Positions 7,646 to 45,356 of a stretch of 48,282 nucleotides of DNA are shown here, one piece after another. Under the pieces are notes generated by a model, which worked only from the letters and a program-made list of their open reading frames with translations, ran no database searches and had not been told where the DNA came from. The first letter of the stretch is position 1, and every line of letters begins with the position of its first letter. The position numbers and the translations under genes were made by a program. Origin of the DNA: an uncultured Anaerolineaceae bacterium. GTDB taxonomy: Bacteria; Chloroflexota; Limnocylindria; Limnocylindrales; CSP1-4. Where the stretch lies: assembly GCA_964650135.1 (NCBI GenBank), contig CAZYTQ010000005.1:6887-55168 (forward strand). Reading direction: 5' to 3'.

Positions 7646-8449
7646 GTGTCCGAGTCGTCCATCACCCTGCCCGACCTCGTGCGCGACGGCGTCCTCGGGG
7701 CTGACCTCGCGGCGCTGGTGTGGCTCATGGTGGAGGGCGGGTCACCGGTGATCGTGTCCGGCGTGGCGCCAGCCAGCGACCGCGAGATGGTGGCGCTGGG
7801 TACGCTCCGGGTCCCGCCGGCTGCCGTCGTGACGACCCTCGACGCGGACCGCGAGCGTCTTCGCGTCGCGGCGCTCGCTGCGCCCATGCGTGCCGGGGAG
7901 CGGCTTGCCGTCCTGGTGGCCGCCCCTGACCTGCGCACGGCGTTGGCACGGCTGACAGGCGATGCCCACGAGCTGCCCGAGGACGCCGTCCGACGCCTGG
8001 GGGTCGTGCTGGTGGTGGAGCGGGTGTCGCTCGTGGCGCGTCCCGGGCCGATCCGCGACGGCCTGCGGGTGCGTGCCGCGCACTACCTCCGGCCCGCCGA
8101 GCGTGACCCACAGGGCCACGTGCAGCGGCGGCCCCCCGCCGTGCTCGCGGAGTGGCGTGCGGACGAGGACGCGTTCGACGACTTCTCGTGGGGCGTCACG
8201 CCCGAGCTCGCCGACCGCGTGGACCGGAGCCAGGCCGATCTCGAGGATGCCATCGCGCGTCGTGCGACGGCGCTCCGGCGACTCGTGGCGGGCCAACCGG
8301 GTCCCGTCACCCTGGAGGCCGTGCTGGCGGCCGAGCCGCCACGGGTTGCCGCCCCCGCCCGCCCGGTCGCGACGCCGTCGCCCGTCGGTTCGCCGCTCAC
8401 CGACCCCCAGCCACACGAGCACGACCACGGGAAGCCACACGTCCACTGA
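7646..8449 (+). CDS. Hypothetical protein; possible degenerate CpaF/VirB11-type secretion-ATPase homologue lacking a P-loop
   Basis: GTG 7646 is in frame with ORF 7541..8449 and is preceded by TATCCT-N6. LVWLMVEGGSPVIVSGVAPASDREMVALG sits where such ATPases carry ..NILVSGGTGSGKTT... DLRTALARLTG...LPEDAVRRLGVVLVVERV resembles their C-terminal block. This similarity is judged from memory only. Confidence 0.5.
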   Translation: MSESSITLPDLVRDGVLGADLAALVWLMVEGGSPVIVSGVAPASDREMVALGTLRVPPAAVVTTLDADRERLRVAALAAPMRAGERLAVLVAAPDLRTALARLTGDAHELPEDAVRRLGVVLVVERVSLVARPGPIRDGLRVRAAHYLRPAERDPQGHVQRRPPAVLAEWRADEDAFDDFSWGVTPELADRVDRSQADLEDAIARRATALRRLVAGQPGPVTLEAVLAAEPPRVAAPARPVATPSPVGSPLTDPQPHEHDHGKPHVH

Positions 8450-8614
8450 GGACCCCGTTGCACGCTCGGCCGTGTCCGAAGGCAGCGCTGGGACGGGTCG
8501 ACATCTCGCGAGCGATGTCGGTCAGCGGGTCGGGCGCAACCGCGGATCGGACGGATGCTCGTGCCCCCGGCGCCAGTCCAGCGGGGCTGGCCGGTGTCGG
8601 CGTCCGGTCCAGCC

Positions 8615-8631
8615 CGTGTCTGGCAGTCACG
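8615..8631. promoter_or_regulatory. Isolated copy of the 17-bp dyad-symmetric motif CGTG-N-CTG-N-CAG-N-CACG
   Basis: CGTGTCTGGCAGTCACG. All 14 defined positions match the three arrayed copies downstream. Only two of the spacer N positions differ. Confidence 0.45.
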
Positions 8632-8801
8632 AGAGTGATGATCCGGCGGGATGGAGGGCTCCGAACGGTCCGCGTCTCGAGCCGCGCACGGTCGATCGGC
8701 TGCGTGGCGATGCCACCTGGGTGCGATCGGGCGCGCGTGGCATCCACAGCGGACCGATGTGGATCCAGGAGCGGCCAGTCGCGGTTCCAGTGGGCTGGGA
8801 G

Positions 8802-8920
8802 CGCCGGCGGGACGCGCGATCTCGTGACTGGCAGACACGCCGGCGGGACGCGCGCGACCTCGTGACTGGCAGACACGCCGGCGGGACGCGCGATCTCGTG
8901 ACTGGCAGACACGCCGGCGA
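8802..8920. repeat. Head-to-tail tandem repeat of 36/38/36 bp plus a 9-bp partial unit; each unit carries the 17-bp dyad motif
   Basis: Units 8802-8837 and 8876-8911 are identical (cgccggcgggacgcgcgatctcgtgactggcagaca). Unit 8838-8875 differs only in atct versus cgacct. The dyad CGTGACTGGCAGACACG lies at 8823-8839, 8861-8877 and 8897-8913. Each unit also contains the palindrome CGCCGGCG. Confidence 0.9.
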
Positions 8921-9069
8921 CCCCAGGACCGGCACGCGGACGGGCGAGAGGACTCGTCTCCCCAATCCCGCGCCATCCGACCACCATCCGACCATCACCG
9001 GGCGACCCCCGCCGTTGGTGGTAGCCTCGTCCCTGGGCCGCACGCACAGCCACGCACCATGGAACGAAG

Positions 9070-10482
9070 ATGCCACCCTCGTCCACCCGTCGCCCGGCCA
9101 CGCTCGGTGGGCTGCGCGCGACCGGCTACCGGCCGCGCAGCGTCAAGGCGGAGATGCGTGCCAACCTGCTCGCGGCGCTGGCCGCGGACGCGGACGTGTT
9201 CGCGGGGATCGTGGGCTACGAGTCCACGGTCATCCCGGCCATCCAGAACGCGATCGTCGCGGGCCAGGACATCGTGCTCCTCGGCGAGCGGGGCCAGGCG
9301 AAGACCCGCATCGCCCGCTCGCTGACGCGCCTCCTGGACGAGGACATCCCCACGGTCGCCGGCACCGACCTGCGGGAGGATCCGCTCGCGCCCATCACGA
9401 GCGCGACCATGGAGCGCATCGCCACCGAGGGCGACGCCACGCCCATCGAGTGGCTGCCGCGCGACCGCCGCTACGGGGAGAAGCTCGCCACCCCGGACAT
9501 CACCATCGCCGACCTCGTGGGGGAGATCGATCCCATCAAGGTCGCCGAGGGTCGCTATCTCGCGGATGAGTCGACCATCCACTTCGGGCTCATCCCGCGC
9601 ACCAACCGGGGCATCGTGACCATCAACGAGCTGCCGGATCTCGCGGAACGCATCCAGGTGGGTCTGCTCAACATCCTCGAGGAGCGGGATGTCCAGGTCC
9701 GTGGCCACGCCATCCGGCTGCCGCTGGACCTCGCGTTCGTGGCCACCGCGAACCCGGAGGACTACACCAGCCGGGGCCGCATCATCACGCCCCTCAAGGA
9801 CCGCCTGGGGTCCCAGATCCGGACGCACTATCCGCGGACCATCGAGCTCGAGCTGGACATCATGCGCCAGGAGCGGGCCACGTTCGACGACGCGTCGATC
9901 GTGCTCGAGGAGCCACCGTTCATGCTCGAGATCGTGGCACGCCTGTCCCATCTCGCTCGACGCGCCCCGGAGGTCAGCCAGCGCTCGGGCGTGAGCGTCC
10001 GGGTGAGCATCGCCAACCTCGAGACGATGACTGCCAACGCGCTCCGTCGGGCGGTCCGGCTGGGTGAGCAGGCAGCGGCGCCCCGCATCAGCGACCTGGG
10101 TGCGCTGGTCCCATCGACGACCGGCAAGATCGAGCTCGAGACGCTCGGCGACGAGACGCCCGAGGAGCGCATCGTGGACCGACTCATCGCGCGTGCCGTC
10201 CACGAGACGTTCGCACGCCACGTGGACGAGGGCACCCTCGGTGATGTCGTGGAGGCCTTCGAGTCGGGCCTCGTCGTGCGGACCGGTGAATCGGTGCCCG
10301 CTCGGGACTACGTGGGCTGGATGCGTGAGACGCCGGGGATGGCCGCCGCGGTGTCCCGGCTGGGCATCGGCGAGTCGCCGGTCGCGGTCGCCTCGGCCGT
10401 GGAGCTCCTGCTGGAGGGCCTGCATCTCCATCGTCGGCTCAACAAGGACCGTGCTGCCACAGGTGGCACGTACCGGGCATGA
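9070..10482 (+). CDS. ChlI/BchI-MoxR-like AAA+ ATPase (COG1239-type)
   Basis: 470-aa ORF. P-loop LLGERGQAKTRIA. The block GLIPRTNRGIVTINELPDLAERIQVGLLNILEERDVQVRGHAIRLPLDLAFVATANPEDY aligns by eye with the ChlI Walker B to sensor region. Confidence 0.85.
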   Translation: MPPSSTRRPATLGGLRATGYRPRSVKAEMRANLLAALAADADVFAGIVGYESTVIPAIQNAIVAGQDIVLLGERGQAKTRIARSLTRLLDEDIPTVAGTDLREDPLAPITSATMERIATEGDATPIEWLPRDRRYGEKLATPDITIADLVGEIDPIKVAEGRYLADESTIHFGLIPRTNRGIVTINELPDLAERIQVGLLNILEERDVQVRGHAIRLPLDLAFVATANPEDYTSRGRIITPLKDRLGSQIRTHYPRTIELELDIMRQERATFDDASIVLEEPPFMLEIVARLSHLARRAPEVSQRSGVSVRVSIANLETMTANALRRAVRLGEQAAAPRISDLGALVPSTTGKIELETLGDETPEERIVDRLIARAVHETFARHVDEGTLGDVVEAFESGLVVRTGESVPARDYVGWMRETPGMAAAVSRLGIGESPVAVASAVELLLEGLHLHRRLNKDRAATGGTYRA

Positions 10483-45272: not shown

Positions 45273-45356
45273 TGGTGCGGGAGGGGGGACTCGAACCCCC
45301 ACGCCTCGCGGCACTGCCTCCTAAGGGCAGCGTGTCTGCCGTTCCACCACTCCCGC
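45273..45356 (-). tRNA. tRNA-Leu (anticodon UAG), type II with long variable arm, CCA encoded
   Basis: The reverse complement is GCGGGAGTGGTGGAACGGCAGACACGCTGCCCTTAGGAGGCAGTGCCGCGAGGCGTGGGGGTTCGAGTCCCCCCTCCCGCACCA. Acceptor GCGGGAG/CTCCCGC, anticodon stem CTGCC/GGCAG with loop CTTAGGA, T-arm GGGGG-TTCGAGT-CCCCC. Confidence 0.93.

Follow-up and report, generated by a model that had tools for sequence, protein, structure and literature searches.

A probable lineage-restricted intergenic mosaic repeat upstream of an AAA+/vWA operon in uncultured Chloroflexota

The window, which is the whole 48,282-bp stretch of DNA analysed here, contains an AAA+/vWA operon (Rv0958/Rv0959-like), in which the ATG of the AAA+ gene is at 9070. 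A 620-bp gap separates this operon from a conserved hypothetical gene, which is the upstream neighbour of the repeat element described below. The features of the gap are as follows.

8450..8613, no strand: non-coding stretch from the stop codon of the upstream gene to the left core, weakly conserved relative to L001, the closest relative
8614..8634, minus strand: left (inverted) core copy, reading TCTCGTGACTGCCAGACACGG on that strand, with the TCT head directed towards the interior; identical in L001 (L001:3485-3505)
8615-8631: motif copy CGTGTCTGGCAGTCACG
8635..8819, no strand: non-coding interior of 185 bp between the innermost opposed cores, with 68% identity to L001
8802..8919, plus strand: tandem array of 36/38-bp units, each consisting of a core and the spacer CGCCGGCGGGACGCGCGA, found by TRF
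8820..8840, plus strand: right core copy R1, TCTCGTGACTGGCAGACACGC
8858..8878, plus strand: right core copy R2, CCTCGTGACTGGCAGACACGC, in which a single mismatch falls within the TCT head
8894..8914, plus strand: right core copy R3, TCTCGTGACTGGCAGACACGC, outermost on the AAA+ side
8823-8839, 8861-8877 and 8897-8913: motif copies CGTGACTGGCAGACACG
9019..9029, plus strand: box TGGTAGCCTCG, a candidate extended -10 element (TGnTAnnnT) of the AAA+ gene, ending 42 nt before the ATG and outside the repeat

The initial annotation regarded the gap as non-coding, and the data agreed with this. The GC content per codon position was flat from about 8450 to 9050 (0.64-0.80 in the three phases) and strongly phased on both sides, and the six mechanical ORFs crossing the region had no Pfam match at E<=0.1. 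A decayed gene or a hidden ORF was rejected on the same grounds, and a 58-aa ORF at 8651-8827 was rejected as a gene because 1-nt indels break it in L001. The four reported copies of CGTG-N-CTG-N-CAG-N-CACG were found exactly where they had been placed: the pattern CGTGNCTGNCAGNCACG with zero mismatches gave four matches in the window, with 0.00 expected from 100 dinucleotide shuffles, and no further copy was found elsewhere in the window with two mismatches allowed. The arrangement of three of these copies in a 36/38-bp tandem array was also borne out, both by TRF (8802-8919, period 36, 3.2 copies, 92% matches) and by the comparison of units, which showed that units 1 and 3 are identical across 44 nt and that unit 2 is longer by 2 nt. 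This array is the right arm of the element, amplified locally.

Other readings of this region were considered and rejected. A CRISPR array does not fit, because the units in the window abut without a unique spacer, and the spacers in other arrays copy one another. The CTGGCAG sequence resembles the -24 element TGGCAC of a sigma-54 promoter, but no TTGC -12 element comes after it. The gap contains seven GATC sites, which could bring Dam to mind, but the window as a whole has 6.7 per kb, and 15% of 620-bp windows have at least seven.

The extent of the conserved sequence was defined with a matrix of 49 copies. Conservation was confined to positions -1 to +20, with random flanks, and the T, C and T before CGTG were each present in 44-49 of the 49 copies, which gives the 5′ extension (A/T)TCT. 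The copy at 8615 matches the other three in inverted orientation over 20-21 nt (TCTCGTGACTGsCAGACACG), with one central mismatch, and is best read as their inverted partner. Therefore, the conserved unit is an asymmetric core of 21-22 bp, W-TCT-CGTGACTG-N-CAGACACG-C, with the 17-mer as its centre, and not the symmetric 17-mer proposed initially.

The comparison of the window with L001 showed that the cores are identical at 83 of 84 positions, versus 260 of 429 (61%) in the remaining gap. The 185-bp interior aligned with 125 matches and 59 mismatches, and the stretch 8450..8613, which is probably part of lineage-specific extra DNA, with 66 matches and 60 mismatches, plus gaps. Both arrays have three units, and their copies are 61 and 69 bp apart in L001 versus 38/36 bp in the window. 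Of the features of the array in the window to which attention had been drawn at the outset, neither the palindrome CGCCGGCG nor the period of 36/38 bp is kept in L001, and the spacer sequence is not kept either. The argument that the spacing of about 3.5 helical turns is meaningful fails because of the different spacing of this orthologous array. The fact that all four cores were kept at the orthologous locus is unlike decaying selfish DNA, and points to a function at the level of the host or of the element.

A scan for CGTGACTGSCAGACACG across 185,579 species genomes returned 53 loci. About 40 of them are lone seed matches in unrelated taxa, without the TCT/C flanks and without a second copy (41 matches at <=4 mismatches in 40 loci). 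The remaining ones cluster in Limnocylindria-type MAGs, on 3 contigs of ACE_CHL4 (GCA_019637815.1), 6 of F3_94 (DAOTUX01) and 2 of swi_bin.80, and place the core at at least 10 unrelated intergenic loci across these three related MAGs, where the abundance and variability of the family are biased by the use of exact 17-mer seeds. The neighbouring genes are unrelated and encode LigA, H+-PPase/BacA, Ffh, TrpD, IDH/Ham1, an HTH protein, a histidine kinase and AbiEii, and at two of the loci the flanking genes converge. When the flanking ORFs were compared all-against-all with BLASTP, no recurrent partner protein emerged beside the arrays, and the windows of <=10 kb around family matches contained no transposase, RAYT/Y1 or other candidate partner gene. 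No match to plasmids, phages or viruses that would indicate such an origin was obtained with blastn; a single viral match was rejected as a family member, being a lone site in a contig of 58% GC. A link to IS256 was also rejected, as the 17-mer corresponds to RDWQTR codons in the IS256-type transposase genes of L023, L036, L052 and L053, and this match was treated as coincidence because the flanks are unrelated. No description of repeats in Limnocylindria was found in the literature, and we regard the family as previously undescribed and present in a few uncultured Chloroflexota genomes.

The layout of the family members is constant, and consists of two opposed sets of 1-6 cores, with the TCT ends directed inward, usually around an interior of about 165-195 bp. 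Such inward-facing sets were found at window/L001, L014, L027, L032, L043, L044 (twice), L051a, L051b and L055, and in 9 of 11 units the starts of the two innermost cores were separated by 186-216 bp. In the window the left set has one core and the right set three. The sizes of the sets and their periods (36-135 bp) vary among loci and among strains, and helical phasing was rejected because these periods share no common phase. The interior of the window is similar to those of the non-orthologous F3_94 elements L051a (z = 9.7) and L051b (z = 5.6). Most other pairs of interiors between loci had z of about 0, and therefore a picture of one MITE copied many times fits only a subfamily. A metagenome scan for the inner pair AGTCACGAGA-N170-200-TCTCGTGACT gave 13 matches, which is about the chance number; only L066, at the same locus as L043, is a real member, and L060 is possibly one.

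To compare orthologous loci, the upstream region of the AAA+ gene was followed across nine lineages. The array is upstream of this gene in three of them (window, L001 and F3_94), while the element is absent from the other six (L002, L003, L004, L071, L072-74 and L075), in which the upstream gap is 123-355 bp long and has no core. Of three clades that are about equally distant from one another, two (window/L001; F3_94) carry the element upstream of the AAA+ gene, with differing upstream neighbours, and this leaves room for a local role. In contrast to the element, the box TGGTAGsCTCG is invariant in all nine AAA+ lineages, with the element present or absent, and lies downstream of the element's position. 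Its conservation suggests that the TGGTAGCCTCG box is likely the core promoter of the AAA+ gene. The last core is located 96-125 nt upstream of the conserved TGGTAGCCT box, and in the window the array lies upstream of the TGGTAGCCTCG box, with 104 nt from the array end to the box. A scan of 8300-9200 returned neither a sigma-70 promoter nor an intrinsic terminator.

These observations bear on the main proposal of the initial annotation, according to which a dimeric regulator bound to the four dyads, as a dedicated operator or upstream activating array, controls the AAA+/vWA operon. The position of the array in the three lineages is consistent with such control, and the half-sites, about 10 bp apart, would suit a helix-turn-helix dimer. 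However, the six lineages without the array retain the promoter box, and the same core adjoins at least nine unrelated loci, some of them intergenic regions between convergent genes. A distance of 104 nt separates the array end from the -10 box, and the spacing differs between orthologues. Moreover, the site is asymmetric and has no adjacent regulator gene. Because the core is scattered among unrelated genes, it is not a control site dedicated to the AAA+/vWA operon; the distribution has largely refuted this explanation, which we consider extremely unlikely. Both findings that the initial annotation had named as speaking against it, orthologous upstream regions without the motif and membership of a repeat family, were largely made.

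The family has much in common with REPs (repetitive extragenic palindromes), which occur mostly as head-to-head or tail-to-tail dimers, with their RAYT-dependent doublets (REPINs) and with the BIMEs of E. coli, namely short imperfect palindromes that carry a conserved, unpaired extension on one side, a strictly extragenic location dispersed beside unrelated genes, head-to-head pairs and clusters, and a lineage-restricted, vertically persistent occurrence with conservation as a "master sequence". REP families of only 20-100 units, as well as cluster arrangements, have been documented (PMC3733652). It could be proposed that the core is a classical REP, that is a single-stranded-DNA hairpin with a 5′ tag, here the unpaired TCT, spread by a RAYT (IS200/IS605-type Y1) transposase. 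The REP tag classes are GTAG or CGTC, and head-to-tail arrays are rare in REPs (PMC3733652), while here the tag is (A/T)TCT, and head-to-tail arrays with locus-specific periods of 36-135 bp are the rule. Additionally, the head-to-head partners are about 185 bp apart instead of adjacent, the copy number is apparently low (loci per genome and not hundreds, as seen from windows of <=10 kb around matches), and no Y1 transposase was present in any locus within these windows.

The folding of the core also differs from that of a REP. For the canonical core alone the predicted energies are -3.4 kcal/mol as DNA (z = -1.0) and -2.8 kcal/mol as RNA (z = +0.5). Among 200 shuffles of the DNA, 28 reached a fold at least as good, and the core lacks the stable single-strand stem-loop that the 20-40-bp palindromes of REPs form. 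The canonical stem is weak because the commonest core carries an A.A mismatch. A minority of variant cores form perfect 7-bp stems with energies of -6.4 to -7.7 kcal/mol, which would agree with a REP hairpin, but positions 5 and 13 show no consistent covariation, as A.A, A-T, C-G, C.T and A.G all occur. Taken together, we consider a classical REP/REPIN to be quite unlikely.

The structured leader or small RNA that had been suggested as an alternative was not upheld. The two stem-loops indicated for it, 8499-8520 and 8709-8744, are no better than shuffles (z = -1.5 and -0.3) and are not conserved in L001, and covariation was seen only in the terminal inverted repeat. Rfam scans, with gathering scores and with E-values, detected in the window only a tRNA at 45276-45356; the best match in 8350-9150 was FsrA, with 24.7 bits versus a gathering score of 80, and 12 family loci gave no match. 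RNAalifold, applied to 9 and 4 units, showed no conserved internal RNA structure besides the terminal inverted repeat. A broader proposal is that the left core pairs with a right core in a transcript crossing the element, forming a 20-21-bp stem around about 185 nt, which could serve as a terminator, insulator or mRNA stabiliser, or that the unit encodes a small RNA. Indeed, both strands of the unit fold better than shuffled sequences (z = -3.6 and -3.9), the terminal stem is present in all nine aligned units, and the variant CTGGTGG retains G.U-compatible pairs, on the sense strand only. However, the extra folding energy stems from the inverted repeat itself, the covariation terms are +0.07 and -0.38 kcal/mol, and the lack of Rfam matches and of promoter-like or terminator-like sites within 8300-9200 does not fit either. 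Pairing would keep complementarity, and yet it is the identical sequence that is kept across loci and genomes. Hence, an RNA-level element is very unlikely.

The proposal of the initial annotation that the motif is read by a protein as DNA and not as an RNA hairpin is supported in part. The weak self-hairpin, the lack of an Rfam family and the near-invariance of the cores relative to the rest of the gap agree with it for the form in which the motif is read. The most likely reader of the core is a sequence-specific protein that acts in trans and recognises duplex DNA.

The presence of the element differs between relatives. At the trpD locus, two anchors separated by 1,304 bp in F3_94 have 84-85 bp between them in L077 and L078. 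In L079, an 89% identical relative, a ResIII helicase gene encodes an intact 975-aa protein, of which about 95 aa are left in F3_94, as a fragment directly next to the array. This polymorphism suggests that the element is, or was, mobile. The divergence of the relatives and the variability of the array ends were too great for element boundaries or a target-site duplication to be defined. The strains L043 and L066, which are about 99% identical, have 6 versus 3 units at bacA, a difference of 228 bp, although such copy numbers may be partly artefactual, since the relatives are all MAGs or metagenome contigs and tandem repeats can mis-assemble.

An alternative to mobility is that the arrays are immobile and selected by the host. 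They would then be sites for a global DNA-binding protein, such as a nucleoid-associated protein, a topology or boundary factor or a global regulator, on opposed arrays at about a dozen intergenic loci, each kept by selection. This would account for the conservation of the cores in place (83/84 versus 61% for the surroundings), for the three tandem copies kept in the window and L001 despite changed spacers and periods, for the similar spacing of inner pairs (186-216 bp) even with unrelated interiors, and for the element upstream of the AAA+ gene in two clades with different upstream neighbours; the weak self-hairpin, too, favours duplex recognition. It is more difficult to reconcile with presence and absence that vary at two loci among relatives that are fairly close, the empty sites being short and clean, with a helicase gene truncated at the array boundary, with copy number varying between 99%-identical strains, with a subfamily showing whole-unit homology at non-orthologous loci, and with periods of 36-135 bp without helical phasing. 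We consider such host-selected arrays unlikely.

Mobile elements of the MITE type, such as the Correia elements of Neisseria and the cyanobacterial Nezha, offer a further comparison. Here, terminal inverted repeats bounding a short non-coding unit, as expected of MITEs, were found in the window and nine other units; they are 20-21 bp long and 95% complementary, and the unit is about 230 bp and non-coding. Several copies per genome, the insertion polymorphism between relatives and the truncation of a neighbouring gene at one locus are also MITE-like, and the outer ends read TG...CA, which would be as at the tips of DDE transposons. On the other hand, the interiors are homologous only within one subfamily (window/L001 versus L051a and L051b; z = 5.6-9.7), the terminal repeats are amplified to arrays of up to 6 copies, no target-site duplication is definable, and no autonomous partner was seen within <=10-kb windows around matches. 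The conservation of the cores in place is also unexpected for dead MITEs.

The BOX element of Streptococcus pneumoniae, boxA-(boxB)n-boxC, is a modular intergenic mosaic with complementary ends and variable internal tandem modules, found near promoters of unrelated genes. The family described here shares with it the modular mosaic build, the intergenic location, the complementary ends and the changing number of tandem modules, but the sequences are unrelated, BOX varies its internal module while here the terminal core is reiterated, and BOX modules are conserved in full while here only 21-22 nt are. The 43-bp repeats of F sopC, as well as R1 parC and the iterons of plasmids, have a fixed period and lie next to the cognate par/rep gene in one replicon. 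The likeness to these centromere and iteron arrays consists in tandem units of 36-100 bp with one short dyad-like protein site each, sometimes in two sets flanking a centre. Here, in contrast, the periods vary between orthologues, and the loci are many, chromosomal and without an adjacent cognate gene.

These data together suggest, with a probability of roughly 0.6, that the region represents one copy of an intergenic mosaic repeat that is lineage-restricted and non-autonomous and behaves most like REPIN/BIME/MITE-type elements. In such a repeat, the cores would form two sets in opposite orientation, with the TCT heads inward and usually with an interior of about 165-195 bp between them. The sets would grow and shrink through tandem duplication or unequal recombination of units composed of a core and its adjacent flank, which would explain the locus-specific periods. 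The near-invariance of the cores amid drifting surroundings would be explained by protein recognition; candidates for this protein are an autonomous partner's transposase or recombinase and a host protein that adopted the sites. What the data show is that the sites form a family with a common architecture, that insertions are polymorphic, that the arrays change and that the cores are conserved in place; protein binding, the identity of the binder and the way in which the repeat spreads are inferred. In the window the element would then be extra DNA between the conserved hypothetical gene and the core promoter of the AAA+/vWA operon, and any effect on the expression of this operon would be secondary.

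A more tentative view, which we hold with low confidence, is that the cores are cis-sites of an uncharacterised Limnocylindria-specific DNA-binding system, in which a protein encoded by the host or domesticated from a mobile element would assemble on opposed, size-variable arrays around about 185 bp at at least a dozen intergenic loci, kept by selection at each. If so, rather than selfish DNA in decay, the arrays would represent a new type of landmark on the chromosome, serving, for example, as domain boundaries, as landmarks for recombination or repair, or as insulators of expression.

For the AAA+/vWA operon, the results mean that it has no private four-site operator, and that the TGGTAGsCTCG box at 9019-9029 is the conserved candidate for its control element. 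In a wider sense, they document a repeat family in a poorly studied, uncultured class of Chloroflexota, with an unusual build in which an asymmetric 21-bp core is repeated into opposed arrays. Insertion polymorphism combined with cores that are strongly conserved in place is what characterises persistent REPIN-like systems, the biology of which remains a matter of debate. For strain typing in metagenomes the arrays provide natural variable-number markers, and they are a hazard for the assembly of MAGs as well. The binding protein, if identified, would define either a new pair of transposase and transposon end or a new chromosomal DNA-binding system.

The gap at 8450-9069, immediately before the AAA+ start codon, was confirmed to be non-coding: GC content by codon position is flat over about 8450-9050 and strongly phased on either side, and mechanical ORFs crossing the gap had no Pfam match. 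The four exact copies of the motif CGTG-N-CTG-N-CAG-N-CACG described in the initial annotation were recovered at 8615, 8823, 8861 and 8897 (4 matches in the window versus 0.00 expected from 100 dinucleotide shuffles), while the rest of the 48-kb window contained no further copy, even at two mismatches. The tandem array was also recovered by TRF (8802-8919, period 36, 3.2 copies). Relative to the other three copies, the one at 8615 is an inverted partner, matching them over 20-21 nt (TCTCGTGACTGsCAGACACG) with one central mismatch.

Features of the region in the window
7646-8449: gene for a 267-aa hypothetical protein without a Pfam match
8614-8634, minus strand: left core
8820-8840, 8858-8878 and 8894-8914, plus strand: three right cores
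8973-8994: 2 x 11-nt tandem repeat CCATCCGACCA without mismatches, located past the array and before the putative promoter box, conserved in part in L001
9019-9029: putative promoter box TGGTAGsCTCG
9070-10482: AAA+ gene, ChlI/BchI-like ATPase
about 10.5-12.6 kb: vWA protein gene, Pfam Mb0984_helical and Rv0959_3rd

The dispersal of the motif was analyzed by scanning one genome per species in GTDB r232 with the query CGTGACTGSCAGACACG, which returned 53 loci. About 40 of these, in unrelated taxa, were isolated matches to the seed whose flanks showed no relationship; the remaining ones clustered in a group of three MAGs related to each other, in which ACE_CHL4 contributed two contigs besides the orthologous locus, F3_94 six and swi_bin.80 two. 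Matches in this group always continue to (A/T)TCT-CGTGACTG-N-CAGACACG-C, where conservation stops, and we refer to this asymmetric unit as the core. At up to 4 mismatches, the three-MAG loci, recruited via exact 17-mer seeds, contained about 60 copies; the window outside the gap contained none, and neither did eight related seedless loci (about 59 kb), in which one copy appeared at up to 5 mismatches. In four of the isolated matches, all proteobacterial (L023, L036, L052 and L053), the seed CGTGACTGGCAGACACG encodes RDWQTR within the conserved NGYRDRDWQTRAGTVEL motif of IS256-type transposase genes; as the flanks there bear no relation to the Chloroflexota core, the match was regarded as a coincidence. 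In swi_bin.80 (L022:1727-1810), a LysE gene is preceded by a core that lacks the TCT head, CTTCGTGACTGGCAGACACGA, and, about 50 nt further on, by a degenerate second copy, CATGACTCTCAGACACG; judging from this locus, diverged members of the core family may also occur in other Limnocylindrales.

The genes neighboring the arrays are unrelated housekeeping and accessory genes, encoding LigA; H+-pyrophosphatase and BacA; Ffh; TrpD; isocitrate/isopropylmalate dehydrogenase and Ham1; an HTH_31 protein; a GAF-PAS histidine kinase; an AbiEii-like nucleotidyltransferase; and the AAA+/vWA pair of F3_94. Two loci, L013 and L051a, lie between convergent genes. No protein family recurred beside the arrays among the flanking genes compared, for which gene calls were crude and GC3-based, with a Pfam check only for named genes. 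The motif is thus not private to the AAA+/vWA operon but is found beside unrelated genes, which does not bear out the initial reading of the copies as its operator sites, and an operator dedicated to this pair is very unlikely.

In every well-populated locus the same plan was observed, in which 1-6 minus-strand cores are followed by 1-6 plus-strand cores, with the TCT heads facing inward.

Cores per locus (left, minus strand; right, plus strand)
Window and L001: 1 left, 3 right
L043: 1 left, 6 right
L055: 6 left, 2 right
L032: 3 left, 3 right
L051a: 4 left, 1 right
L051b: 1 left, 1 right
L027: 1 left, 1 right
L014: 1 left, 2 right
L044: two tandem 1+1 units

Measured between starts, the innermost opposed cores of nine units lie 186-216 bp from each other; in L032 and L055 the distance is about 100-113 bp. 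L051a has an interior of 186 bp, and the window, L043 and L051b each have one of 185 bp; significant interior similarity was detected only among window/L001, L051a and L051b (z = 5.6-9.7), the other interiors being unrelated. The period within a set varies by locus from 36 to 135 bp, and the spacers within a set are copies of each other, which indicates tandem duplication of core plus flank. Unrelated short tandem repeats directly adjoin the core arrays at L043:2120-2477 and L032:1403-1650, one with a unit of about 24 nt, cccggcccaggagccgccccggtg, repeated about five times, and another with ccccggacacgcgcgc-like units; the intergenic regions around core arrays seem generally prone to tandem amplification.

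The nearest relative, L001 in ACE_CHL4, has a syntenic AAA+ gene (91% identical) preceded by a 640-bp gap. All four cores are present there, with 83 of 84 positions identical to the window (21-nt cores), while the gap outside the cores is 61% identical (260/429) and the interior 68%. Between the three right-hand copies the spacing is 61 and 69 bp in L001 versus 38 and 36 bp in the window. Hence, the cores are constrained, while their spacing and spacers are not. Because of this strong conservation in place, the main rival explanation, that the arrays are host-selected binding platforms without mobility, stays live, albeit as an unlikely one. To the left of the element, L001:3367-3439 contains a 27-nt unit, GCGAACGGTAGCGTGGAGCTCCTGCGA, that occurs three times with a spacing of 23 nt and has no counterpart in the window.

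Upstream of the AAA+ gene the element is present in 3 of 9 lineages (window, L001 and L051b of F3_94), and absent in L002, L003, L004, L071, L072-74 and L075, with gaps of 123-355 bp; the three clades (window/L001, L002-4 and F3_94) are approximately equidistant, at roughly 78% AAA+ identity. At trpD, the anchors are 84-85 bp apart in L077 (TrpD 87%) and L078 (81%) versus 1,304 bp in F3_94, where the extra DNA comprises an 8-core element and the first ~95 codons of a ResIII helicase. The reading frame of this truncated gene (L055:3048-3521, minus strand; Walker A PPGSGKT) runs straight into the array, while L079 (TrpD 89% identical) has an intact 975-aa helicase (L079:3-2930) at the corresponding position upstream of trpD and no core, which associates the array with a gene-destroying rearrangement. 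Upstream of bacA, two ~99%-identical strains have 6 versus 3 copies (L043:2684-3091 and L066:3310-3489), a difference of 228 bp, exactly three units; this is VNTR-like behavior, or possibly assembly collapse, since all relatives are MAG or metagenome contigs, in which tandem repeats may be mis-assembled.

The view that a hairpin is unlikely was upheld, as the commonest core folds poorly both as DNA (-3.4 kcal/mol, z = -1.0) and as RNA (-2.8 kcal/mol, z = +0.5). Positions 5 and 13 of the 17-mer are A.A in most copies, and also A-T, C-G, C.T and A.G, so pairing is not maintained. On either strand the complete unit is more stable than its shuffles, an excess due solely to the terminal inverted repeat; alignment folding of units gave no conserved internal helices, and neither the gap nor the family loci had an Rfam match. 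The sole Rfam/ARAGORN match in the window was a tRNA-Leu with anticodon TAG (45273-45356, minus strand). The accessory features noted earlier, which were the CGCCGGCG palindrome, the 36/38-bp period and two stem-loops, were neither conserved nor above chance. What is shared between loci and between genomes is one identical, asymmetric sequence and not complementarity alone, which suggests that the core is recognized as duplex DNA by a trans-acting protein.

The closest AAA+ relatives are all Chloroflexota MAGs labeled Limnocylindria or Limnocylindrales, and the two Pfam domains of the vWA protein identify the pair as an Rv0958/Rv0959-type module. The 267-aa hypothetical protein is a conserved upstream neighbor of the pair in L001, L002 and L071, and is encoded nearby in L003 and L072; together the three proteins may constitute a single functional module akin to Rv0958/Rv0959 of M. 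tuberculosis. The TGGTAGsCTCG box is invariant in nine of nine AAA+ lineages (window, L001, L002, L003, L004, L051, L071, L072 and L075), 40-60 nt before the start codon. Judged by sequence, it is plausibly an extended -10, fitting TGnTAnnnT, and it stands as the prime candidate for a genuine, conserved control element of the operon. As the box is kept with or without the element, the latter is placed upstream of a conserved, likely core promoter that does not depend on it. Wherever a gene follows downstream of an array, that gene has its own -10 (TAGACT, TAGAAT or TAGCCT), located past the array and before the start codon at a variable distance.

In its behavior the element is closest to REPIN/BIME systems and TIR-bounded MITEs. 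It is kept outside these families, because two features that define REPs, the tag and the stable hairpin, do not apply to it, and because neither a transposase nor a target duplication was found in the stretches of 10 kb or less covered around the matches. We propose that the region belongs to a mosaic repeat that is intergenic, persistent and non-autonomous and is defined by opposed cores, in which the 21-22-bp core would serve as a protein recognition site and the arms would grow or shrink via unequal recombination or slippage between adjacent cores. Gain, loss and rearrangement of such an element would take place over the time in which genera diverge, while its cores would stay intact once in place.
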